Of a stretch of 32,000 nt of DNA, positions 160 to 10,449 are shown in pieces. Position 1 is the first letter of the stretch, and each line of letters starts with the position of its first letter. The translations under genes and the position numbers were made by a program. The notes below the pieces were generated by a model that did no database searches, was not told where the DNA came from, and saw nothing but the letters and a program-made list of their open reading frames with translations. This stretch comes from Propionibacteriaceae bacterium (lineage in GTDB: Bacteria > Actinomycetota > Actinomycetes > Propionibacteriales > Propionibacteriaceae): assembly GCA_031256725.1 (NCBI GenBank), contig JAIRQE010000006.1, positions 60,001 to 92,000 of the forward strand, in the 5' to 3' direction.

Positions 160-1950
160 ATGACTACGAATCTAACTGAGGCCGAGTTCATTGTCCTGAG
201 CCATGTGGCAACTCAGGATTCCGCGGATTCCTCATCCGTTTTTGTGTCACCACAGATTCCTCATCAAAGCGTCGATTCCATTGTCGAAGCACTTCAATCT
301 AGGGGGTATCTCAATGGTTTTGCAGTGACTCCGGTAGGAGTTGCTGTTCTGGAGCCATACAAAGTTAGAAACGCAGTAGTCATGGCTGCAGGAATGTCGA
401 CACGCTTCGCACCGATCTCCTATGAGAAACCAAAAGGATTATTGACCGTCGGTGGTGAAGTTCTTATCGAGCGAACAATCCGCCAACTTCAAGAGGTCGG
501 GATCACTGAGATTACCGTCGTTCTTGGGTACATGATGGAACAATTCCTCTATCTTGAGGACATGTTTGGGGTCAAGATTCGGATTAATCCTGAATACTCA
601 AGCCGAAACACAAACTCTACACTGAAGCTCGTTGAAGACCTTCTTGACAACACCTATATCTGTTATGCAGACAACTATTATGCGAGGAATATCTTCGAAC
701 CCTATGCATACCATGCGTACTATTCAAGTGCCTACCATGAGGGGCCGACTCAAGAGTGGGCACTAACTGTTGATGAAAGAGACCGGATCACTCAGGTCAC
801 TCCTGGTCTAGGTGATTCCTGGGTCATGTGGGGACCAGTGTACTTTGATCGTCAATTCTCTCGGGACTTTGTGCCAATTCTTAACCGTGTTTACGATGAC
901 CCAGAAACTCCACCAAAACTCTGGGAGGCTATCTATGCAGACCATGTTACCGAAGTGGATATGCGAATCCGACGCTATGAAGCTGGGGTGATCTTTGAGT
1001 TTGATTCCTTGGAGGAATTAAAAGCCTTTGATGAAAACTTCATGGTTAATGTTGATTCTTCTATTCTTGATAACATATGCACTACCCTCAATGTTGCCCG
1101 ATCCGACCTTGGAGAGTTTTCTCCCATGACAGATGGACTCTCAAATCTTTCGTTTTCCTTCACCGCGCAGGGTAAGAAATATGTCTACCGTCATCCAGGG
1201 GCATTCACGGTAGGAATTAACGATCGAGTGGCTGAGGCCCAAGCTGAAAAGGTCGCTCAAGATCTAGGCTTAGATAAGAGCTATATATACCTAAATCCTG
1301 AGAAAGGGTGGAAGATCTCTCACTTCATTGATGTGAGTGAACCCTTCGACTATCACAATCCTATACATGTGGCCCGCAGTTTAGATTCAATAAGGCGGCT
1401 TCATCATTCTGGACGAAACATCGAAGCCTCCTTTGACCTTTACGACGAGGGGCTTAAAATCACTGATCGGCTCATGTCCATTGGTGTTGGTGGTGCGACT
1501 CCACGATTCGATTTTCCGGATTTCTACCTACTTAAGGATCGTGCGGCTCGATTGAAGGAGCTTACTGATTCTGACCAAGTTGGAAAAGTCTTGTGCCACA
1601 ATGATTTTTACGAGCCCAATATTCTCATCACTGATAAGGATATTTATCTTATCGACTGGGAATTTTCGGGAATGAATGACTACGCCAGCGATTTGGGTAC
1701 TCTTATCTGTTGCTCGGATTACACCTATGAAGAGGCGCTGGACGTTTTAGCAGTCTACTTCGGTCGAACCCCTACTGATGCCGAGATTAAGCATTGTGTG
1801 GCTCATATTTCTTTGTCCGGTTACTACTGGTGGATCTGGGCACTCAATAAGGATGTCTGCGGAGAACCGGTAGGCGAGTGGACTCACTTATGGTATCGAT
1901 TTGCTAAAGAATATGGGCGAAAAGCTATAGAACTTTACGAAAGAGGATAG
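160..1950 (+). CDS. Tri-domain enzyme, paralog 1 (divergent): degenerate winged-helix N-domain + LicC-like nucleotidyltransferase + LicA-like choline/ethanolamine-type kinase
   Basis: ORF track gives 25..1950. NTP-transferase loop VVMAAGMSTRFAPISYEKPKGLL. Kinase motifs LCHNDFYEPNILI and LIDWEFSGMNDYASDLG. I prefer the start at ATG160 (MTTNLTEAEF...). Positions 60-125 are AT-rich and promoter-like, and the resulting 596 aa matches the 592-aa paralog at 3196..4974. Confidence 0.8.
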   Translation: MTTNLTEAEFIVLSHVATQDSADSSSVFVSPQIPHQSVDSIVEALQSRGYLNGFAVTPVGVAVLEPYKVRNAVVMAAGMSTRFAPISYEKPKGLLTVGGEVLIERTIRQLQEVGITEITVVLGYMMEQFLYLEDMFGVKIRINPEYSSRNTNSTLKLVEDLLDNTYICYADNYYARNIFEPYAYHAYYSSAYHEGPTQEWALTVDERDRITQVTPGLGDSWVMWGPVYFDRQFSRDFVPILNRVYDDPETPPKLWEAIYADHVTEVDMRIRRYEAGVIFEFDSLEELKAFDENFMVNVDSSILDNICTTLNVARSDLGEFSPMTDGLSNLSFSFTAQGKKYVYRHPGAFTVGINDRVAEAQAEKVAQDLGLDKSYIYLNPEKGWKISHFIDVSEPFDYHNPIHVARSLDSIRRLHHSGRNIEASFDLYDEGLKITDRLMSIGVGGATPRFDFPDFYLLKDRAARLKELTDSDQVGKVLCHNDFYEPNILITDKDIYLIDWEFSGMNDYASDLGTLICCSDYTYEEALDVLAVYFGRTPTDAEIKHCVAHISLSGYYWWIWALNKDVCGEPVGEWTHLWYRFAKEYGRKAIELYERG

Positions 1951-1952
1951 TC

Positions 1953-3188
1953 ATGGAAACCTTCGGGACAGTTGTTGTCTACATCATCATGGCCTGTGCC
2001 GTGACTGGAATGATCGTATCCATCGTGAAACCCAAGGCACAATTAGGCAAGGAGTTCCTTGCTGGTATTGATTCAATCGGACCGATCTTCCTGCCAGTGG
2101 CAGGCATCATGGCGGCAGCTCCTTATCTCACTACATTTGTTTCTTATGTCTTCGGCCCTGTCTTCGCTGCTCTTCAAGCTGATCCAGCGATGGCTGCGGG
2201 ATCACTCATTGCGGTCGACATGGGTGGATACCAACTGGCTGAGGCTCTCGCTGAAACGAGGGAATCCTGGATGATGGCAACCATGGCTGCTTATACCCTC
2301 GGTGGAGCTATTGTTTTCACAATTCCAGTAGGTCTGCGCATGATCCAGCGTCGTGACCACAAGTTTTTTGCTCTAGGAACGATGTGTGGAATTTTGGCAG
2401 TACCTGTGTCTGTCTTGATTTTCTCCATGATCTTGGTAGTCACAAATCCGGTGATTCGAGATGCCATCAACACCTCGGGGCCGGCAACCTATGTCCTATC
2501 TCTGGCTTGGACTACAGTGGGTCGCAACCTCATTCCATTGCTTGTTTTATGTGTACTTCTGGCTCTTGGTTTGATGTTTATCACTGACGCTATGATCAAA
2601 GGGTTTATCGTTTTTGGACGTAGCCTTGAAGCTGCCCTCAAGATAGTCTTCGTACTGGTTGTTGTGGACTACTTCACTGGCCTTCCCTCCCGTCTCATGG
2701 GTGCGCTCTTCCAGTTTGAGCCTATCATTGCTGACGAAGCAGATATATTCCGGGCTCTTGAAGTAGCAGGTGCGGTTGGTATCATGCTTTGCGGTGCTTT
2801 TCCAATGGTTCATCTCATCAAAACCTACCTTGCGAAACCCCTTACGGTAATCGGGAAGTTCTTTCACCTGAGTCCGGAGGCCACTGCTGGAATCCTGGCA
2901 GCTTCAGCCAATGGTATTGCTCTGTTCGCGATGTTCAAGCATCTTAAAGGGAGAGATAAGGTTATCACTGTCGCCTTTGTTATCTGCTCTGGCTATCTTT
3001 TTGGTGATCACCTTTCATTTACTGCAAACTTCCAGCCTTCGATGATTGCTCCTGTCATGATTGCTAAGGTGACTGGTGGGGTCCTCGGAATAGTCTTTGC
3101 TTTCCTTTTAGCTGTTAAGAAAGCAGACCAACTAGAGGCGACACAAATGGAGTTGGATCAAGTAGTTGAGAAAGTTGTGACAAACTAG
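1953..3188 (+). CDS. eutH: EutH-family permease (ethanolamine-transporter family)
   Basis: 411 aa and strongly hydrophobic. Blocks match enterobacterial EutH as I recall it: ADPAMAAGSLIAVDMGGYQLAEALA, IVFTIPVGL..RRDHKFFALG, FRALEVAGAVGIMLCGAFPMV, ASANGIALFAMFKHLKGRDKVITVAF..GDHLSFTA. The ATG lies 2 nt after the upstream stop and is preceded by AGAGGA. Confidence 0.8.
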   Translation: METFGTVVVYIIMACAVTGMIVSIVKPKAQLGKEFLAGIDSIGPIFLPVAGIMAAAPYLTTFVSYVFGPVFAALQADPAMAAGSLIAVDMGGYQLAEALAETRESWMMATMAAYTLGGAIVFTIPVGLRMIQRRDHKFFALGTMCGILAVPVSVLIFSMILVVTNPVIRDAINTSGPATYVLSLAWTTVGRNLIPLLVLCVLLALGLMFITDAMIKGFIVFGRSLEAALKIVFVLVVVDYFTGLPSRLMGALFQFEPIIADEADIFRALEVAGAVGIMLCGAFPMVHLIKTYLAKPLTVIGKFFHLSPEATAGILAASANGIALFAMFKHLKGRDKVITVAFVICSGYLFGDHLSFTANFQPSMIAPVMIAKVTGGVLGIVFAFLLAVKKADQLEATQMELDQVVEKVVTN

Positions 3189-3195
3189 GGCTGCA

Positions 3196-4974
3196 ATGAG
3201 ATCAGAACATTACGTCGCCCTATGTAGGCAGTTGTGCGCTAATCCGACCCTGACTCAGCGAGATCTTGCTTCTCGACTAGGAGTCTCTCTTGGGCTTATT
3301 AACCTCACGCTTAAAGAGTCCATCGTTCAAGGGTATCTTCGAAAAGAGGGAGCTAAAACCCTGCTCACCGATGAAGGGCAGAGTTACCTTGACCAATTCA
3401 AAGTAGACAATGCAATCATTCTCGCTGCTGGTTTCGGATCTAGATTCGTACCTTTCACATATGAGACACCCAAAGGGTTGTTGAAGGTCAAGGGTGTACC
3501 CATGGTGGAGCGCCAGATTGAACAACTCATTGCTGCTGGTATCAAAGAGATCATCATTGTTGTGGGCTATCGAAAAGAAGCTTTCGACTATCTCATTGAT
3601 AAGTATGGTGTCACGCTGGTGTATAACCCTGAATATGCAGAAAAAAATAATTTCGTCAGTATGTATTATGCGCTCGATTATCTGAAAAGCACCTATGTGC
3701 TCATGTCGGATAACTGGATTGAAGAGAGCATCTTCAACGCATGGGAGTCACGGTGTTGGTTTTCCTGTCTGTACTTTGAGGGAAAGACTGCAGAATGGAT
3801 TGCCCATAGTGGTTCTCGGGATAAGATCACGAAAATTGAAATAGGTGGAGAGGATGCCTGGGCAATCTTAGGCCCTGCGTATTTTACGCGAGATTTTTCA
3901 GAGACTTTCGCCGAACTTATTCGGGAGCATTATCATAGTCCAGGAACTGACAATGACTATTGGGAGCATATTCTTAAAGACAATCTGGGGTCGCTTCCTC
4001 CGATGTACATGAATAAGCAATCTAGAACCAATGTCTATGAGTTCGAGAATCTGGAGGAGTTGAGGGAATTCGATGAGTCTTATCGGCTGGATTCCGATAA
4101 TGTCATCATCCGGGAGATTTCGCAGGCCCTTAATGTTTCTCCAGACATGATCTGCCGCATCACCCCACTTAAGGTAGGAGCTAGCAATCTCTCATTCACT
4201 TTCTATGTGGATTCACAAGGGTATGTATTTCGTACCCCAGGCTTAGGGACTGAGAAGCTCATCAATCACGCCCAGGAGAAAGCAGCCTATGATGTGCTGA
4301 TTGATGTAGGGATTACTGATGAGATTGTGGCCTTCAATTCACAGCGGGGCACGAAGATCACCAAGTTCTATGAGGGGGTACATGTTGTTGATCCCTCGGA
4401 TGTTGGTCAACTGACAGAGGCTGTACGCCTTATTAAAACCCTACATACAAGCGGCCTTTCCACTGGGTACGCCTGCGATATTGAAAAAATGATTTCTTGT
4501 TACCGTGACCTGGCTGAAGAAATTAATGCTATTCGATTTGTGGACTTTGATGAAGTGACTTTATCTATAGACAAATTGCTTAATCTCAAGCGAAAAATTG
4601 CTGTTGAACCAGTACTGTGCCATGGTGATTTCACTAATACTAATGTTATCCTTTTTCCAGATGGCTCAGGGAAACTCATCGACTGGGAATACTCCGGAAT
4701 GGCCGACCCTATCATGGACATCTCAATGTTTGCTATCGATTCAATTATGGATCGCCCTCAAATTGACCAGTTTATGAGGATGTATATTTCCGAACCCACC
4801 CGTGAAGAATGGTGTCGATTGTATCTTTATGTCGCACTCGGGGGCTTTCTGTGGTCTATCTGGGCAGAATACAAACAGGCCAGTGGACAAGAGTTTGGTG
4901 AGTATCCTCTCAAGATGTATCGCTATGCGAAAGACTACTATTCAATCCTTGTCCACGAAGGCTACTTGGCTTAG
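3196..4974 (+). CDS. Tri-domain enzyme, paralog 2 (canonical): MarR-like winged helix + LicC-like CTP:phosphocholine-type cytidylyltransferase + LicA-like kinase
   Basis: N-terminal HTH: PTLTQRDLASRLGVSLGLINLTLKESIVQGYL. Transferase: AIILAAGFGSRFVPFTYETPKGLL and VGYRKEAFDYLIDKYGVTLVYNPEYAEKNNFVSMY, close to pneumococcal LicC as I recall it. Kinase: LCHGDFTNTNVIL and LIDWEYSGMADPIMDIS. It starts 7 nt after the eutH stop. Confidence 0.85.
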   Translation: MRSEHYVALCRQLCANPTLTQRDLASRLGVSLGLINLTLKESIVQGYLRKEGAKTLLTDEGQSYLDQFKVDNAIILAAGFGSRFVPFTYETPKGLLKVKGVPMVERQIEQLIAAGIKEIIIVVGYRKEAFDYLIDKYGVTLVYNPEYAEKNNFVSMYYALDYLKSTYVLMSDNWIEESIFNAWESRCWFSCLYFEGKTAEWIAHSGSRDKITKIEIGGEDAWAILGPAYFTRDFSETFAELIREHYHSPGTDNDYWEHILKDNLGSLPPMYMNKQSRTNVYEFENLEELREFDESYRLDSDNVIIREISQALNVSPDMICRITPLKVGASNLSFTFYVDSQGYVFRTPGLGTEKLINHAQEKAAYDVLIDVGITDEIVAFNSQRGTKITKFYEGVHVVDPSDVGQLTEAVRLIKTLHTSGLSTGYACDIEKMISCYRDLAEEINAIRFVDFDEVTLSIDKLLNLKRKIAVEPVLCHGDFTNTNVILFPDGSGKLIDWEYSGMADPIMDISMFAIDSIMDRPQIDQFMRMYISEPTREEWCRLYLYVALGGFLWSIWAEYKQASGQEFGEYPLKMYRYAKDYYSILVHEGYLA

Positions 4975-6119
4975 TCCACCAGTTCCCTGGCAATGCTTAT
5001 TAAGGCTTGAGCGGTCTGATCCCATGTGAAGGTGCTTTCTACCCGCGCACGGGTCTTGTTGGCCGCACTGTGCCGCCATCGGTCATTGGTAAGGGCTTCG
5101 ATAAGGAGTTCAGCGATAGTTTGTTCATTGTGTGCGGGCAAGATGCCGCCATATTCTTTGGAGAGGATTAATTCTGGGGTTCCACCGACGGGTGTTGTAA
5201 CCATAAAAGTACCAAGGGCTCCCGCTTCAAGTACTACTGTTGAGAAGCCCTCAGAATGTGAAGGTAGGCAAAAGATATCTGCTTGACTGAGGAGAGATAG
5301 AGCTCGTTCGTGTGTGAGTCCGCCAACATAGATCACCCCAGCCTGATTGTGAGCTTCAAGCTGGCTGTGCAGGGGGCCTTCACCAGCGATGATTAGAACG
5401 CACTCAGGAACGGTGAGTTGAGTAACTCTCATTGCTTCCAGAAGCTCAGGAATGCCCTTTTCGGGTAGGAGACGTCCAACAAAGGCAATGAGTTTCATCG
5501 AGGCCGGGATTGAGAAGTCATCACGGACGTTCCATGCACCCTGTGCTGCTTGCTTCACGGTTTGATTGATGTTGATGGCGTTATAGAGAATCTCTACATC
5601 ATTGATTGCAAAGGTTTTCAGCCACGAAGCACTCTGCTGAGATACAGCAGCAAATTTCGAGGCATATCTCTTCATCCACCATGCAGCAATGTGTTCATAG
5701 ATTCGAATGATTGTATTGAGTGCATAATTACCCATGGTTAAATAACTGGATCCATGTTCAAGAACAATGCAGGGAATTCCTCGCTTCGCGCATGCACGAG
5801 CTGCCCATAGTGACAGTGCCCAGAATCGTGTATTAATCAATGCAAGGTCGAAGTTGCCTACCGCAATATCCTTCATCAGTGATCGGAAATTTCGGTTAAA
5901 ACGCGGTAGAGGATAACGCCCAGCGAGCATAGGAATCGAAGGTACTCGAACGATTTTTACTGCGTCTTCATTCTCACTTATCGGAGTATCAGGAAGTTGG
6001 CTAGCAATGATAGTCACTTCATGGCCCGCATGGGTAAGTGCTTGGGCCAGATAGTGAGTGTACCTCTCTACTCCACCTATTGTGGGGAGGTACTGTGCGG
6101 AGAAGAGAGCGAATTTCAT
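4971..6119 (-). CDS. GT4-family glycosyltransferase
   Basis: ORF track gives 4971..6143. Typical GT4 N-terminus MKFALFSAQYLPTIGGVERY and E-x7-E block EGFSTVVLEAGALG. I prefer ATG6119, which has purine-rich GAGAAAG upstream. The longest ORF starts at 6143. Confidence 0.8.
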   Translation of the reverse strand: MKFALFSAQYLPTIGGVERYTHYLAQALTHAGHEVTIIASQLPDTPISENEDAVKIVRVPSIPMLAGRYPLPRFNRNFRSLMKDIAVGNFDLALINTRFWALSLWAARACAKRGIPCIVLEHGSSYLTMGNYALNTIIRIYEHIAAWWMKRYASKFAAVSQQSASWLKTFAINDVEILYNAININQTVKQAAQGAWNVRDDFSIPASMKLIAFVGRLLPEKGIPELLEAMRVTQLTVPECVLIIAGEGPLHSQLEAHNQAGVIYVGGLTHERALSLLSQADIFCLPSHSEGFSTVVLEAGALGTFMVTTPVGGTPELILSKEYGGILPAHNEQTIAELLIEALTNDRWRHSAANKTRARVESTFTWDQTAQALISIARELVD

Positions 6120-6215
6120 GTGATGGCTTTCTCTTTCTATCATTCCTCAGGGTTACCTATTGGCTCATGGTACTAGACTACCTAGGTCAGGGAAGCACAA
6201 GATAGGAGTGAGTGG

Positions 6216-7043
6216 GTGGCTGACCAAAGTGATGTGCGTGACATTCAACTGCGACTATTGTCCATTTTGAAACTGATCCAAGCCGTGTGCGAGCGTCATG
6301 AAATTAGATTCTTTCTTGCTTATGGAACTTTACTGGGTGCGGTACGTCATAAGGGTTTCATTCCTTGGGATGATGACGTTGATATTTTCATGACCAGACA
6401 AGACTATGAAAAACTCTTTTCAGTGCGAGATGAACTTGGGCCCGACTTCATTATTCAAGAATGGAGGACCACGCCTGAGTATTGGTGTTCTTATCCGAAA
6501 GTACGACAACTTCGGCCTAAGCCTTATATAGAATCACTGATTGCTGATGTAACCGAGAAGAACGGCTTATTTATCGATATCTTTGTGCTAGATGGCTTGC
6601 CTCGGGAACGTTCTCTAGCCCAGTGGCTAGTGGCTGAGGTTCTCAACTTTGCTCGGATTCTTCTTTTGCTTAAAGATATTGGCCCACGAGATCCACGCCC
6701 ACTCATTAAGGCAATCAGTCCACTAGCCAGACTCATTCCGCGATCCTTGATTGCCAAAGTGATGGAGTGGGGATGGTCGCGGTGGAAAGATGGGCCTGCA
6801 ACCTGGCTTGTTCCATATGCGGATCCCGATCTTCGTAATAGTCCGATTCGAGCAAGTGCAATTTTATCAAATGGGGGGGGGTGCTCCATGGTTGAATTTG
6901 AGGGCATTCCCATGCCATGTCCTCGTGATTCAGAGGGATTTCTTCACACCTATTACGGTGATTACATGCAGCTTCCACCTGAAGATCAAAGAGCCTGTCA
7001 TGATATGCGTAGGAACCCCGACTACCATCCGGATGAAGGTTAA
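6216..7043 (+). CDS. licD: LicD-family phospho-alcohol (phosphocholine-type) transferase
   Basis: LLGAVRHKGFIPWDDDVDIFM (LicD acidic motif) and C-terminal YYGDYMQLPPEDQR. GTG6216 has AGGAG (6204-6208) 7 nt upstream. Confidence 0.85.
   Translation: MADQSDVRDIQLRLLSILKLIQAVCERHEIRFFLAYGTLLGAVRHKGFIPWDDDVDIFMTRQDYEKLFSVRDELGPDFIIQEWRTTPEYWCSYPKVRQLRPKPYIESLIADVTEKNGLFIDIFVLDGLPRERSLAQWLVAEVLNFARILLLLKDIGPRDPRPLIKAISPLARLIPRSLIAKVMEWGWSRWKDGPATWLVPYADPDLRNSPIRASAILSNGGGCSMVEFEGIPMPCPRDSEGFLHTYYGDYMQLPPEDQRACHDMRRNPDYHPDEG
6873..6881 (+). repeat. G9 homopolymer tract inside licD (encodes GGG, residues 220-222)
   Basis: Counted directly: g6873 to g6881. It is the longest G/C homopolymer I found in the window. 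Confidence 0.95.
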
Positions 7044-7046
7044 TAC

Positions 7047-8354
7047 GTGCTTCATCGGATTCTTACCAACTCGAAGAACGTCAATCGAAGTGCCTACATC
7101 TGGAACATGATTGCGAGCATCCTGGCAGCAGCACAGTCGATGGTGATGATCTTTGGGGCTTCCAGTCTTCTTGGCGTGGCTGCTACAGCTGTGATTTCGC
7201 TAGCATCTGCGTACACCTATACTCTGTCAACTATTGGTGCTTTTGGAATGAGAAGATTCCATGCTTCAGATGCGGACCGCCAGTATTCCCAACGTGAATA
7301 CCTATGGTCGAGATTCATAACAGTGAATGCCATGTTCGTGATTGCCGCGGTCTTCATTGTGATGAAATCTTGGGATCCGCAGTCTACGCCGATGAAACTT
7401 GGAGTTATTGCAATACTGGTTCTGATTAGGGCCGTTGACTGCATTGACGATGTCATTACTGGGCATTTTCAGCAGACGGGTCGCCTAGACATTGGATCAC
7501 GGATCACGGCATTGCGTTTAGTCGTGTGTACTCTCGGCTTTCTCGTTTCCTTGATTATCACTCGTGATCTGATGCTTAGTCTGATCATCAGTTTCGTACT
7601 CTCACTTCTTGTTCTGGCGGTACTTGCTCGATCCGCTTTGCAGGGCTATGACCCTGATCGTGTACGTACCGTTGACAGGGTAAAAGTGTGGAAACTCCTG
7701 TGGGCTTGCATGCCATTGTTTATCTGGGGTTTTCTTGGGATGTATATCACTAATGCACCCAAGTTTGGGATTGAATCCGCCATGGAAGGAATAGCTCAGA
7801 AGCAGGCCCAAGCTTGCTACGGGATAATTTCAATGCCTGCTTTTGTGATCTCTTTGTTGAGTGGTCTGGTTTTTCATCCCATTATCCATTCCCTTTCTCG
7901 ACAGTGGTTGGATCGGGATTTGGTTGGTTTTGGGCGAACAGTAACCCGAATATCTCTCGTTATCTTAGGGATCACTGCTGCTTGTGTTACTGGAGGAGCA
8001 CTTCTAGGCTTGCCTATCCTTTCGCTAGCATCTCCTTTAGTCGATCTTGGGGGATTAGAACTCGAACTCGCAATACTCCTCTTAGGTGGAGGATTTACCG
8101 CTTTTTCTGCATTCTTCTCAACAGTGCTGACGATTATGCGTCGACAACTGGCTGCTGCCGTTGCTTTGGGTGTAGCTGCGGCTTTCGGACTGACTTCTCA
8201 CTGGTGGGCTCAGTGGCAAGGACTTTTGGGGGTTTGTTTATTGTTTTTAACAATGTACGCCCTCAACACCCTCATTGCAGGGGTGCTGATATGGTGGACT
8301 TGGCGGTCTCGACGATTTAAGGGAACACCCCATTCTGAGGCCAGTACGACGTAG
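7047..8354 (+). CDS. Multi-pass membrane protein, probably a Wzx/MOP-type glycan flippase (polymerase not excluded)
   Basis: 435 aa with about 12 hydrophobic segments. GTG start lies 3 nt after the licD stop. The N-terminal region NRSAYIWNMIASIL...GMRRF resembles polysaccharide-transporter N-termini. No catalytic motif recognised. Confidence 0.45.
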   Translation: MLHRILTNSKNVNRSAYIWNMIASILAAAQSMVMIFGASSLLGVAATAVISLASAYTYTLSTIGAFGMRRFHASDADRQYSQREYLWSRFITVNAMFVIAAVFIVMKSWDPQSTPMKLGVIAILVLIRAVDCIDDVITGHFQQTGRLDIGSRITALRLVVCTLGFLVSLIITRDLMLSLIISFVLSLLVLAVLARSALQGYDPDRVRTVDRVKVWKLLWACMPLFIWGFLGMYITNAPKFGIESAMEGIAQKQAQACYGIISMPAFVISLLSGLVFHPIIHSLSRQWLDRDLVGFGRTVTRISLVILGITAACVTGGALLGLPILSLASPLVDLGGLELELAILLLGGGFTAFSAFFSTVLTIMRRQLAAAVALGVAAAFGLTSHWWAQWQGLLGVCLLFLTMYALNTLIAGVLIWWTWRSRRFKGTPHSEASTT

Positions 8355-8368
8355 ACACAAGGAGGATC

Positions 8369-9418
8369 ATGGCTCGCGTGATGCATGTTCTTTTATCTGG
8401 AGGATACTCTGGGGCAGAGAATGTGGCTGCGACCATTGCTCTGCTTGAAAAAGAGAATGAACATATCTATGTTTCTCCTCCAGGTGTCATTTCCTCTGTC
8501 TTGGAGCGGTTAGGTATTCGACACGTTGAGGTACCTAGGGTCACACCTTCAGCGATCTCGCGGGTGATCCGAGAACACTGCCCGAATGTCGTCCATGCCC
8601 ACGATATAGGAGCGGCAACCATAGTTGCCCTCGATCACCTTGTTCATCGACACTACCGATTGTTGACTCATATTCACTGCAACCATCCCAATATGCGTCG
8701 TGTAAGTGTCCGATCTTTGCTACTGCTTTTTGTGAACACTCAATCTGACGCACTTTTCGTAGTCTCACGTCCTGTGATCGACGACTATCTATTTAAGAAG
8801 TGGATTAAGACTCCGACGGTGCTTCCCAATGTCGTTAATGAGGAACTCATTATGGAGTCCAGCAGAAAGAGCCTGGCCAAAAATATTGATGTTGTATTTC
8901 TGGCTAGGCTCACTCACCCAAAGAACCCCCTCGGATTCATTGATGTCATAGCTGGAGTACGAAAGTCGATTCCGGGTCTGAAAGTCGTCGTCATTGGAGA
9001 CGGAGAACTGGCAGAACAGACGAAGGCCAAAACGGTCGGCGAAGGCCTTGAAGATGTCGTCGAATTCTTGGGTTTCCAGGCCAATCCTTATCCTTATGTT
9101 AAGCAGGCAAGAATCTGTGTCCTCACATCAGTATGGGAAGGCTATCCCATGTCGGCTCTTGAAGCCATGCTCTTAGGAGTGCCCATAGTATGTACCGATG
9201 TTGGGGGTTTGCCACAGATGGTCAACGACTCAGTGGGTAGGGTTTGTACGACTTTAGCTCAGATCGAAGAAGAAGTGATACATCTATTATCGGATCCTAA
9301 GTATCTTGAAGAAAAGACAGCCAAGACCACAGACCATGCTCGTCAAATCAACAATGTGAAGGGTTTCAAACAGATCCTTTCGAGCACCTATCACCGCCTA
9401 GCTGAGATGAGTCGGTAA
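8369..9418 (+). CDS. GT4-like glycosyltransferase
   Basis: E-x7-E block EGYPMSALEAMLLGVPIVCTDVGGLPQMV. Strong SD AAGGAGG upstream of ATG8369. Confidence 0.75.
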   Translation: MARVMHVLLSGGYSGAENVAATIALLEKENEHIYVSPPGVISSVLERLGIRHVEVPRVTPSAISRVIREHCPNVVHAHDIGAATIVALDHLVHRHYRLLTHIHCNHPNMRRVSVRSLLLLFVNTQSDALFVVSRPVIDDYLFKKWIKTPTVLPNVVNEELIMESSRKSLAKNIDVVFLARLTHPKNPLGFIDVIAGVRKSIPGLKVVVIGDGELAEQTKAKTVGEGLEDVVEFLGFQANPYPYVKQARICVLTSVWEGYPMSALEAMLLGVPIVCTDVGGLPQMVNDSVGRVCTTLAQIEEEVIHLLSDPKYLEEKTAKTTDHARQINNVKGFKQILSSTYHRLAEMSR

Positions 9419-9561: not shown

Positions 9562-10449
9562 CTAGAAACGTACGATCACCGTTGTTGATGACTGGGAGGA
9601 ATCGGTACGTCCAACCCAACCAGTCAGGGTCTTATCAGAGGCCTTCCATTCGTAGCTGCCAATTGTCACTTCTTTCACTCCGGTTTCAGTGGCCCAACTT
9701 TGTGCAAAAGCTGCCACGGACCATGCGATCTCTTCATTGGAGGCGGTGAGGGTGACGTAGGGGTCTTCGGATGATGTTCCTGGAGTCACCACAGCGTGTA
9801 CCGTTGCACCGTATGCTCGTGTCATTGAGGAAACTAAGAGTTCGGGGTTCGCGGGAGCTGGGTTATACACAATACAGGACCAGGACGCAGGGGTCTGGCC
9901 TGATAAGGATGAGGCTAGCAGCCGAGCGCGATCCACATGCTTGTCATAAGCATCAGGGAAGCCACTGCGTTGAACGGCTTGAGCCACGTCACCAATATCG
10001 GAGTTCTGCCAGTCGCTGACTTTCACCATCTCATCGAAGAATTTCCCTGTTGAATAGTAGGGATCCATGATCTGCTCCTCCGTACCCCAGCCTTGGGAGG
10101 GGCGCTGTTGGAAGATGCCGAGTGAATCGCGATCACCATAATCAAGGTTGCGGATATCGGACTCTTGGAAGGCGGTGGTGATTGCAATCGATACTGCCCG
10201 GGGTACTAGTCCGCGTTGGGCAGCGATACCTGCCATCAGGGAGGCGTACCTCGACTGATCTATGGTGATGCTTGCTGAGCCTGAATCGAGTTGTGCCCGG
10301 CACAGGGTGGCAGGTGGTGGGGGAGGATCTTCTACCCATAGGGACGAGGCCCAACGGTAGGCGCCCCAGAACCCTGCGATGAGTGCCAAGACGACGAGTC
10401 CTATGCCGAGGCCGATCATGATGGTTTTGAAGGTTGATGAATCTTTCAT
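9562..10449 (-). CDS. Membrane-anchored conserved actinobacterial protein with a lytic-transglycosylase-like motif
   Basis: N-terminal TM segment TIMIGLGIGLVVLALIAGFW, then a proline run. FQESDIRNLDYGDRDSLGIFQQRP parallels the SLT pattern E-S...G-L-M-Q. It starts 2 nt after the dapD stop, so it is probably co-transcribed. Confidence 0.5.
   Translation of the reverse strand: MKDSSTFKTIMIGLGIGLVVLALIAGFWGAYRWASSLWVEDPPPPPATLCRAQLDSGSASITIDQSRYASLMAGIAAQRGLVPRAVSIAITTAFQESDIRNLDYGDRDSLGIFQQRPSQGWGTEEQIMDPYYSTGKFFDEMVKVSDWQNSDIGDVAQAVQRSGFPDAYDKHVDRARLLASSLSGQTPASWSCIVYNPAPANPELLVSSMTRAYGATVHAVVTPGTSSEDPYVTLTASNEEIAWSVAAFAQSWATETGVKEVTIGSYEWKASDKTLTGWVGRTDSSQSSTTVIVRF

Follow-up and report, generated by a model that had tools for sequence, protein, structure and literature searches.

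Two paralogous kinase-cytidylyltransferase fusions, P1 and P2, flank an EutH-family permease in the DNA stretch of a gut Propionibacteriaceae bacterium analysed here (32,000 nucleotides; the window). They represent two ancient sister clades that split after LicC and LicA had been fused, and they are probably non-redundant. The assignment of P2 as a choline enzyme is well supported. Alongside such a choline route, P1 may provide a second, non-redundant one, fed by the permease and preferring a different head group, a reading that we place just short of an even chance.

Both proteins are single polypeptides in which a small wHTH (in P2, an HTH_24 match at aa 12-39, E 1e-5) is followed by a cytidylyltransferase half (Pfam NTP_transferase/NTP_transf_3; the PF12804/PF00483 fold of LicC) and then a kinase half (Choline_kinase/APH; LicA and choline kinases belong to PF01633), the order of LicCA-type enzymes. 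P1 lies at 160..1950 on the forward strand (596 aa), with its LicC-like domain at 361..1035 (aa 68-292) and its LicA-like domain at 1129..1896 (aa 324-579); P2 lies on the same strand at 3196..4974 (592 aa), with the corresponding domains at 3382..4083 (aa 63-296) and 4102..4929 (aa 303-578). The two are 34% identical over 533 aa (BLASTP, E = 3e-96). Against pneumococcal LicC (1JYK), P2 scores 145 bits (E 3e-41; aa 63-296 on chain 19-250) and P1 124 bits (E 6e-35; aa 68-292 on chain 25-248, LicC residues 5-228). The P2 kinase matches LicA (4R77) at 112 bits (E 3e-31), and the P1 kinase scores 59 bits against 3DXQ and 57 bits against 4R77. A preliminary description, made from the letters alone, had recognized paralogous fusions in 160-4974, and these matches bear it out. 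The contrasting motifs that it quoted for P2 and P1 are all found in the translations: AAGFGSRF and AAGMSTRF, YAEKNNFVSMYYAL and YSSRNTNSTLKLVE, DYWEHIL and KLWEAIY, HGDFTNTN and HNDFYEPN. Its choice of the ATG at 160 as the start of P1 also proved the better one. A longer ORF opens at 25, but orthologs align from residue 1-5 of the shorter version, a divergent GT2 gene begins near position 50, and a hairpin with a T-run (56-72) falls inside the longer ORF.

The residues of both paralogs predict catalytic competence, in agreement with the intact cores first described. The kinase elements HxDxxxxN and DWE are present in each (CHNDFYEPN and LIDWEF in P1, CHGDFTNTN and LIDWEY in P2, sharing IDWE), as are transferase residues R18, K28, D107 and E216; position 218 is Asp in P1 and Glu in P2, each 100% conserved within its own clade. 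LicA-numbered D176, N181, D194 and E196 are 98-100% conserved in both clades, and conservation of all catalytic residues checked is close to 100% in each clade, with more than 120 members compared in both. The nucleotide loop of the LicC family has the signature GXG(T/S)R-X8-PK. P2 is canonical here (AAGFGSR, G-F-G-S-R...PK), with a YWE motif further on, and P1 reads AAGMSTR (G-M-S-T-R...PK), with Ser in place of the second Gly. This substitution, and the wHTH at the start of both proteins, might suggest that one paralog has ceased to be an enzyme and acts as a sensor or regulator through the wHTH and degenerate ligand sites. We regard this as highly improbable given the conservation of the catalytic residues; Ser16 is itself present in 98% of the P1 clade, and many genomes have no enzyme of this kind in the locus other than the P1 type.

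With pneumococcal LicC and LicA as outgroup, the P1 clade (123 sampled members, 43-61% identical) and the P2 clade (122 sampled members) are reciprocally monophyletic, with identities of at least 43% inside clades and 27-37% across them. A local duplication was rejected, since P1 and P2 fall into separate clades with clade-wide pocket differences. Both clades occur together in at least three genomes from two classes, the window's own among them. Raoultibacter phocaeensis has the same P1-EutH-P2 order, its genes being 50%, 64% and 53% identical, respectively, to those of the window, and Raoultibacter carries a third fusion and a second EutH as well; the Propionibacteriaceae MAG GCA_009782785 has separate modules with their own transporters, P1-EutH and kinase-DMT-P2. 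The clade-wide pocket differences together with this co-occurrence, including the shared order in Raoultibacter, support non-redundancy.

The differences between the paralogs are clade-wide and conserved, and are not noise. At the LicA choline contacts that we used (T29, D176, V178, Y197, E213, W251, W254 and Y268), P2 has S, D, T, Y, D, W, W and Y, identical or conservative at all eight. P1 has S, D, Y, F, C, W, W and W; it keeps the aromatic cage, replaces V178 with Tyr and loses the acid at 213, with Cys-Cys at LicA positions 212-213. The P1 clade is fixed for Tyr at V178 (98%) and Cys at E213 (98%), and both residues are essentially missing from the P2 clade. On the transferase side, P2 keeps LicC Y92, W136, Y190 and W191, whereas P1 keeps only W136 and W191. 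LicC D105 is Met in P2 and Tyr in P1 of the window (Val/Met and Ser in the respective clades), D192 is Glu in both window paralogs, and E192 and E135 are conserved in the P1 transferase. The pocket region of the P1 transferase is polar (N88, S89, S105, H162, K189) and has two conserved basic residues, R85 and K189; the matching P2 positions are hydrophobic or aromatic (F/L88, A/V89, V/M105, P162, Y/F189, Y190).

A position was called discriminating if the two clades have different residues there, each conserved in at least 80% of its own clade. There are 31, including LicA Y268, a documented choline contact; LicA L212 and I250, which adjoin contacts E213 and W251; and LicC 16, 85, 109, 190 and 218. 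Such sites are not significantly enriched in the LicA pocket (3/8 versus 38/265, p = 0.10). That the quoted blocks line the head-group pocket was assumed in the preliminary description and could be confirmed in part: the LicA cage and LicC D105 and D192 are documented. The block NNFYSLY is present in LicC as described (residues 86-92) but is undocumented as a head-group contact in the texts searched; D105 and D192 are the only LicC choline contacts documented in that literature, where the residues of the composite aromatic box are not itemised. The broader suggestion of two activated substrates fares similarly, as the clade-wide differences and co-occurrence favor it and the lack of significant enrichment in the LicA pocket does not. 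The bulkier P1 kinase residues at V178 (Tyr) and Y268 (Trp) would fit a pocket that favors smaller head groups on steric grounds, an argument already made for PntC versus LicC.

The permease gene (1953..3188, forward strand, 411 aa) begins 2 nt after P1 and ends 7 nt before P2. Residues 5-386 of its product match Pfam EutH (PF04346) at 375 bits; among NCBIfam models, NF011668 scores highest with 559 bits, which is below its cutoff of 575, and other models fall far under theirs. The protein shares 63-68% identity with members of a large actinobacterial clade whose genes come after those of the P1 type, and EutH directly follows the P1 type in 9 of 14 P1-seeded loci. Its identity to the eut-operon EutH of C. 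difficile and Klebsiella is only 32-34%. The C. difficile comparator does sit among eutBC and microcompartment genes, whereas the window and 14 related loci contain no such genes. The closest non-actinobacterial homologs (43-51%) lie outside eut operons and have as neighbors DeoR regulators, kinases and FAD oxidoreductases of the kind seen in polyol catabolism.

The transporter partners, moreover, are not fixed by clade. An Adlercreutzia enzyme of the P1 clade, 61-64% identical to the EutH-linked ones and with the same pocket signature, is followed 1 nt on, translationally coupled, by a true LicB (109 bits) whose choline cage is complete (F109, W167, Y233, Y236, N252, Y255). A P1-type gene at a further locus (L034) is paired with the LicB-like DMT family that otherwise accompanies P2, and one P1 ortholog has an NCS1 permease as its partner. 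Downstream of P2 orthologs lies either a LicB-like DMT protein keeping W167, Y233, N252 and Y255 or a BCCT transporter; these neighbors, the kept or conservative LicA contacts and the four retained LicC aromatics uphold the initial view of P2 as choline-like. In Enterorhabdus sp. P55, a homolog of the phosphorylcholine esterase Pce/CbpE (2BIB, E 3e-85) and two further choline-binding-repeat proteins are encoded on the flanks of a P1-EutH-LicD locus, where no P2-type gene is in view.

The step from eutH adjacency to ethanolamine as the P1 substrate is not supported in light of the permease's distance from eut-operon EutH, its closer relatives outside eut operons, the LicB, LicB-like and NCS1 partners of same-pocket P1 enzymes, the choline-binding proteins at the Enterorhabdus locus and the aromatic cage of the P1 kinase. 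Ethanolamine is still the leading single candidate, though a tentative one, and choline or N-methylated ethanolamines may instead be substrates of P1.

It is conceivable, if somewhat unlikely, that both paralogs make CDP-choline. P1-EutH would then be an alternative choline module of actinobacteria, with an EutH-family permease in the place of LicB, P2 would be a second lineage gained by module accretion, and the two would differ in kinetics, regulation (each having its own wHTH) or expression rather than in substrate. The substitution of LicB for EutH behind an unchanged P1 pocket, the transporter families swapped between clades, the Enterorhabdus neighbors and the retained kinase cage all agree with a shared substrate. 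P2 has no choline importer of its own in the window, and choline may therefore enter through the EutH-family permease; next to P2-type genes there are, in addition, stand-alone LicA-like kinases, which shows that these loci do contain redundancy. A single substrate must nevertheless be reconciled with the fact that three genomes, belonging to two classes, have kept both clades, one of them as two complete modules that each have a transporter, and with clade-specific conserved changes at documented contacts (V178 to Tyr, E213 to Cys, Y268 to Trp) and the absence of LicC Y92 and Y190 from P1. The third fusion and second EutH of Raoultibacter are likewise hard to explain by one substrate.

An alcohol other than a simple amino alcohol (for example glycerol, a polyol, or the serine/serinol type) is a less probable substrate for P1, and we consider it improbable overall. 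P1 would in that case supply a CDP-alcohol to a LicD-family enzyme, comparable to CDP-2-glycerol and CDP-ribitol in capsule loci; CDP-ribitol and CDP-glycerol are known LicD-family donors. The polyol-type surroundings of the 43-51% EutH homologs, the polar transferase pocket region with R85 and K189, and the NCS1 pairing are consistent with such a role, but the P1 kinase keeps W251, W254 and aromatics at 197 and 268, which constitute a cation-binding cage, its transferase conserves E192 and E135, and the exchange for LicB in Adlercreutzia points to an ammonium compound.

The preferred reading, in which P1 and P2 serve different head groups, can be placed in the surrounding locus. Upstream of P1 are GT2, DUF2304 and two DUF6541 genes. 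Downstream, a GT4 glycosyltransferase on the reverse strand (4971..6143; Pfam Glycos_transf_1 and Glyco_transf_4) converges on P2 with a 4-nt overlap and has orthologs in three related loci (L005, L007, which is the Adlercreutzia locus, and L032). It is followed on the forward strand by a LicD-family phosphotransferase (6216..7043, 275 aa), the predicted user of the CDP-alcohol or CDP-alcohols, then by a polytopic membrane protein (7047..8354, 435 aa), a putative glycopolymer flippase from its position only, and by a second GT4 glycosyltransferase (8369..9418; Pfam), which closes the low-GC glycan locus. GC content rises from 45-49% to 52-56% at about 9.4 kb. The 435-aa protein has no match in Pfam, NCBIfam or PDB; it weakly resembles (23-27%) a membrane protein adjoining LicD in L007 and L030, and a Polysacc_synt protein occupies its slot in L032.

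The LicD gene is the only one in the window and the 10 kb upstream, as had been noted for the locus. Its product matches PF04991 at 117 bits, contains a DDDVD acidic motif and scores 76 bits against the NCBIfam Mf1 model (cutoff 225), the match covering the N-terminal region. Mycoplasma fermentans Mf1, a LicD-family enzyme, transfers both phosphocholine and phosphoethanolamine from CDP-choline and CDP-ethanolamine, which makes it plausible that one LicD serves two donors. The acceptor of Mf1 is a glucolipid; its dual use of donors is the property that a single LicD in the window would need.

We therefore picture P1, the permease and P2 as a probable single operon inside a cell-wall glycopolymer locus that would run like the Lic pathway; homology, intact catalytic residues, clade structure, co-occurrence and gene linkage are what the data show, and the substrates, the direction of transport and the acceptor are what we infer. 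A small amino alcohol would first be imported, the C-terminal LicA-like domain would phosphorylate it, and the LicC-like domain of the same polypeptide would convert it to a CDP-alcohol. LicD would then move the phospho-head group onto the glycan, and a donor-tolerant LicD could install both head groups. It is tempting, though doubtful, to extend this to gut and termite-gut Actinobacteria (Coriobacteriia, Propionibacteriaceae, Bifidobacteriaceae) as a modular, import-fed system that gives a single wall glycopolymer several different kinds of zwitterionic head group. A module would comprise a permease (EutH-family, LicB, LicB-like DMT, BCCT or NCS1) and a wHTH-LicC-LicA fusion, with P1-EutH a CDP-ethanolamine or methyl-ethanolamine route parallel to the P2 CDP-choline route and, in some genomes, to an imported-AEP route (PntC-like). 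If so, the EutH family would include biosynthetic head-group importers beside catabolic ethanolamine channels.

The window shares its chemical logic and enzyme families with the Streptococcus pneumoniae Lic pathway (LicB, LicA, LicC, LicD1/2, TacF): alignments to LicC and LicA run the full length of the domains, there is a LicD, and the place of the flippase is occupied by a membrane protein. It differs in that LicC and LicA are fused, in that order, behind a wHTH and in two 34%-identical paralogs, in having an EutH-family rather than a DMT/LicB importer, and in lacking TarIJ genes. We found no description of this variant in the literature searched. LicC and LicA activities are also joined in one polypeptide in Treponema denticola LicCA, which is described in PMC8590670 as making CDP-choline (citing Kent et al. 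2004) that a cholinephosphotransferase converts to phosphatidylcholine. The neighbors in the window are instead LicD and glycosyltransferases, and neither a second paralog nor an EutH permease is reported for T. denticola.

The PntC 2-aminoethylphosphonate cytidylyltransferases are LicC-family enzymes with a shifted head-group preference, their selectivity being ascribed mainly to pocket size (Rice et al. 2019, PMC6697681). Tde-PntC has Glu (E196) at LicC D192, as do both window paralogs; PntC works without a kinase, and its residue at LicC D105 is Glu, against Ser in P1 (Tyr in the window copy) and Val/Met in P2. Related loci have, upstream of P1-EutH, a gene for a PntC-like "ESD" protein supplied by an ABC importer; this gene is absent from the window.

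The window permease shares a full-length Pfam EutH match with eut-operon EutH, but its clade, unlike the latter, is linked to kinase-cytidylyltransferase genes. Whichever the substrate, an entire clade that goes by the annotation "ethanolamine utilization protein EutH" is tied to head-group biosynthesis and not to catabolism, with consequences for inferring ethanolamine and choline use from gut metagenomes. Surface phosphocholine and phosphoethanolamine are ligands of C-reactive protein, natural antibodies and choline-binding proteins, and shape host handling of commensals. Bacterial glycan phosphoethanolamine is normally derived from phosphatidylethanolamine; to our knowledge, there is next to no record of bacteria decorating glycans through a CDP-ethanolamine route that starts from imported ethanolamine, a route that would suit species without phosphatidylethanolamine. 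The cultured relatives Raoultibacter and Adlercreutzia/Enterorhabdus make the substrate question directly testable. Finally, licD contains a G9 homopolymer (6873..6881, forward strand), the sole G/C run of at least 8 within the window.

The gene content of the first 9.4 kb of the window points to a variant of the Lic pathway in which a fused LicC-LicA enzyme has been duplicated and the importer belongs to the EutH family, a combination that we did not find in the literature searched. The two fusions and the permease lie on the forward strand: P1 runs from an ATG at 160 to 1950, the permease (1953-3188) follows after 2 nt, and P2 (3196-4974) begins 7 nt further on. A GT4 glycosyltransferase gene (4971-6143) is convergent with P2, and beyond it lie licD (6216-7043), a gene for a polytopic membrane protein of 435 aa (7047-8354), for which no family match was found in Pfam or the PDB, TacF-era entries included, and a second GT4 gene (8369-9418). 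The contig continues upstream of the window with a GT2 gene in divergent orientation, one DUF2304 gene and two DUF6541 genes. The longest P1 ORF begins at 25 and the database gene call at 76; 160 is a more likely start than 25 because the longer ORF contains a hairpin accompanied by a T-run (56-72), as well as an A8 run (88-95), and because the divergent GT2 gene begins near position 50. This glycan locus has 45-49% GC, against 52-56% in the remainder (9400-32000), where the housekeeping genes include dapD, dapE, a glgC-like gene, gmk, metK, priA, fmt, rsmB and leu genes, and this contrast suggests that the locus may have been acquired horizontally. Between it and dapD, on the reverse strand (9562-10449), is a gene for a protein of 295 aa that has a membrane helix at its N terminus and a Pro-rich linker, and for which we found no family match. 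A contig of a Propionibacteriaceae MAG matches the window at 100% identity; the genome is absent from the species representatives, where the best match reaches 60%.

That P1 and P2 are a paralogous kinase-cytidylyltransferase pair, as the preliminary description held, is clear from their 34% identity over 533 aa (E = 3e-96) and from the LicC-like and LicA-like domains present in both; all of the motifs quoted for them are found, and pneumococcal LicC does have the block NNFYSLY. P2 matches the pneumococcal structures more strongly than P1, with 145 and 124 bits respectively for the LicC-like domain (1JYK) and 112 and 57 bits for the LicA-like domain (4R77). The winged helix-turn-helix (wHTH) domain that precedes them (160-390 in P1, 3196-3380 in P2) has Pfam-significant matches to HTH_24 in P2 and to HTH_24/MarR_2 in P1 orthologs, and only a weak match in P1 of the window itself. 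A DNA-binding domain on a biosynthetic enzyme hints at possible substrate-responsive autoregulation. The LicC-LicA ('LicCA') fusion as such is already known from Treponema denticola (Kent et al. 2004, as cited in PMC8590670).

Each paralog as a query recovered thousands of relatives. A MAFFT alignment of 245 full-length fusions and a neighbor-joining tree rooted with pneumococcal LicC+LicA as outgroup divide cleanly into two monophyletic clades, P1 (123 members) and P2 (122), with identities of at least 43% inside clades and 27-37% across them. LicC R18, K28, D107 and E216 and LicA D176, N181, D194 and E196 are near-invariant in both; therefore neither protein is a decayed copy, and the earlier view that both keep intact kinase and transferase cores holds. 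By this comparison P1 and P2 are members of two old clades, both apparently under selection. Thirty-one positions discriminate between the clades, each at least 80% conserved in both on different residues. Among them are LicC G16 (Ser in 98% of the P1 clade, Gly in 100% of the P2 clade) and, given as P1/P2, LicC Y85 (R/K), Y109 (Y/W), Y190 (L/Y) and D218 (D/E) and LicA L212 (C/I), I250 (Y/L), F265 (V/F) and Y268 (W/Y). Two documented contacts in LicA just miss the threshold because the P2 clade varies there: V178 (Tyr in 98% of the P1 clade; A, V or I in P2) and E213 (Cys in 98%; Y or F in P2). Clade-discriminating sites are not significantly enriched in the LicA pocket (3/8 versus 38/265, p = 0.10). 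We also tried single residues as markers of transporter type and dropped them: at LicA position 250 (His/Tyr), H250 occurs with EutH in one related locus (L035) and with a DMT transporter in another (L034), and at LicC position 134 an abundant P1 subgroup has Asn.

The choline contacts given in the LicA paper are T29, D176, V178, Y197, E213, W251, W254 and Y268. At these eight positions P2 of the window has S, D, T, Y, D, W, W and Y, all identical or conservative, and P1 has S, D, Y, F, C, W, W and W; the P1 kinase has kept the cage, with a Tyr where LicA has V178 and no acid left at 213. Part of the NNFYSLY block of LicC may face the nucleotide base, by analogy with RmlA/GlmU, and no published role for it in head-group contact was found in the literature searched on LicC choline-box residues. 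That literature, including the Rice supplement, names only D105, D192, R129 and E216; only D105 and D192 are documented there as choline contacts, with E104 and E196 as their counterparts in the 2-aminoethylphosphonate (AEP) enzyme Tde-PntC, whose selectivity is attributed to pocket size (PMC6697681). Both paralogs have Glu at position 192, and position 105 is Met in P2 and Tyr in P1 of the window, Ser being the P1 clade consensus. At nearby positions P1 is polar (N88, S89, H162, K189) and P2 hydrophobic or aromatic (F/L88, A/V89, P162, Y/F189, Y190), and positions 88, 89, 162, 189 and 190 may line the pocket.

The proposal that P2 is choline-like is well supported by its LicA-like cage and by the genes 3' of its orthologs. 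A metagenome scan with P2 returned only five loci. In other genomes the gene after the P2 ortholog encodes either a LicB-like DMT protein or a BCCT transporter. The DMT protein (about 365 aa) has LicB as its only PDB relative (E = 2e-6) and retains LicB W167, Y233, N252 and Y255, and the BCCT transporter is adjoined by a choline-binding-repeat protein. In three related loci (L032 7559-8907, L034 8873-10286 and L026 9781-11147) a gene for a conserved 86-106-aa protein always comes after that for the LicB-like DMT protein, which is about 363 aa long and 28-31% identical to a true LicB.

For P1, a different alcohol such as ethanolamine had been suggested from its position upstream of eutH. The linkage stands: a EutH gene lies directly downstream in 9 of the 14 loci found via P1-type proteins, and all loci found via EutH have a P1-type gene upstream. 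P1 as an ethanolamine enzyme, however, is not established. The window permease falls under the NCBIfam equivalog cutoff for EutH and shares only 32% identity with EutH from a eut/microcompartment operon of C. difficile and 34% with that of Klebsiella. Proteins closer to it (43-51%), from Nitratireductor, Paracoccus and P. aeruginosa, have DeoR regulators, kinases and FAD oxidoreductases as neighbours, not eutBC. EutH homologs nearer to the window protein than eut-operon EutH, on a Nitratireductor plasmid (L036 2575-7233) and a P. aeruginosa plasmid (L039 1-6236), lie by DeoR, phosphotransferase/glycerol kinase and FAD oxidoreductase genes, which suggests that this branch may carry substrates other than, or besides, ethanolamine.

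Further evidence against a simple ethanolamine assignment comes from Coriobacteriia. The literature searched contains no report of phosphocholine walls in this class and no mention of phosphocholine together with it; nor does that literature, for any organism, mention EutH alongside LicD or LicA. Adlercreutzia sp. Marseille-QA1605 has a P1-clade enzyme with the pocket signature of the EutH-linked enzymes; it is 61-64% identical to them and no more divergent from them than they are among themselves. The gene that begins 1 nt behind it encodes a true LicB (109 bits), in which the choline cage F109, W167, Y233, Y236, N252 and Y255 is retained. In Enterorhabdus sp. P55 three choline-binding-repeat proteins (L030 9452-15263, L005 12666-16212) come after a P1-EutH-LicD locus: YkuD, a Pce/CbpE-like metallo-esterase and GH25. 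The esterase clearly matches pneumococcal phosphorylcholine esterase (2BIB, E = 3e-85). A transporter of the DMT family that typically accompanies P2 is the partner of one P1-type gene, and an NCS1 permease is the partner of another; thus importer families have been swapped in the neighbourhoods of both clades. This leaves three readings: enzymes of the P1 clade may differ among themselves in specificity, they may be broad, with the choice of substrate made by the importer, or choline may be what the permease of the EutH family transports. Two routes to CDP-choline are a serious rival, somewhat less likely than the two specialised routes favored below.

Co-occurrence of the clades bears on the same question. 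Raoultibacter phocaeensis repeats the P1-EutH-P2 order (50%, 64% and 53% identical, respectively); ahead of it stand an additional P1-like fusion that has a EutH gene to itself and, after an ABC importer, a LicC-only gene. This tandem array (L025 762-9641: LicC-only gene, P1-like fusion, EutH, P1 ortholog, second EutH, P2 ortholog) packs four cytidylyltransferase and three kinase domains into 9 kb, and its two EutH proteins are 71% identical. A Propionibacteriaceae MAG (GCA_009782785) has, in one glycan locus, P1-EutH and a separate P2 module of a stand-alone LicA-like kinase, a LicB-like DMT protein, a small protein and P2, adjoining LicD. That both clades persist in two Actinobacteria classes, in one case as complete modules each served by its own importer, is as would be expected of different specificities. 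We tentatively favor, as the most likely reading, two differently specialised activation routes, with choline for P2 and ethanolamine as no more than the leading candidate for P1. The substrate question is open to experiment in cultured Raoultibacter and Adlercreutzia strains.

Only one LicD was said to be available to use the products, and a single copy is indeed what the window and the 10 kb upstream contain. This is no obstacle to two donors, because the LicD-family protein Mf1 accepts both CDP-choline and CDP-ethanolamine and because LicD gene number does not follow fusion number across related loci. The licD reading frame contains a G9 homopolymer (6873-6881; codons N-G-G-G-C), the sole G/C run of at least 8 in the 32 kb, which might serve as a slipped-strand phase switch controlling head-group transfer, or might be a spot where assembly errors arise easily. 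Large fusions of YidC-like (60KD_IMP) and TagF-like glycerophosphotransferase domains recur near P1- or P2-type genes (L023 738-2654, L024 5641-7941, L026 13974-16106, L027 6006-7892, L033 1-4097, L034 10349-12634), usually adjoining a Sulfatase-family membrane protein of 680-730 aa, and are possible alternative consumers of the CDP-alcohol. Finally, in four related loci (L029 631-5016, also L025, L033 and L035) a wHTH-LicC-only protein with Glu at LicC D105 ('ESD', as in Tde-PntC) lies directly upstream of P1-EutH and behind an SBP-ATPase-permease importer; importer and LicC-only protein together look like a PntC module that would be fed by imported 2-aminoethylphosphonate.
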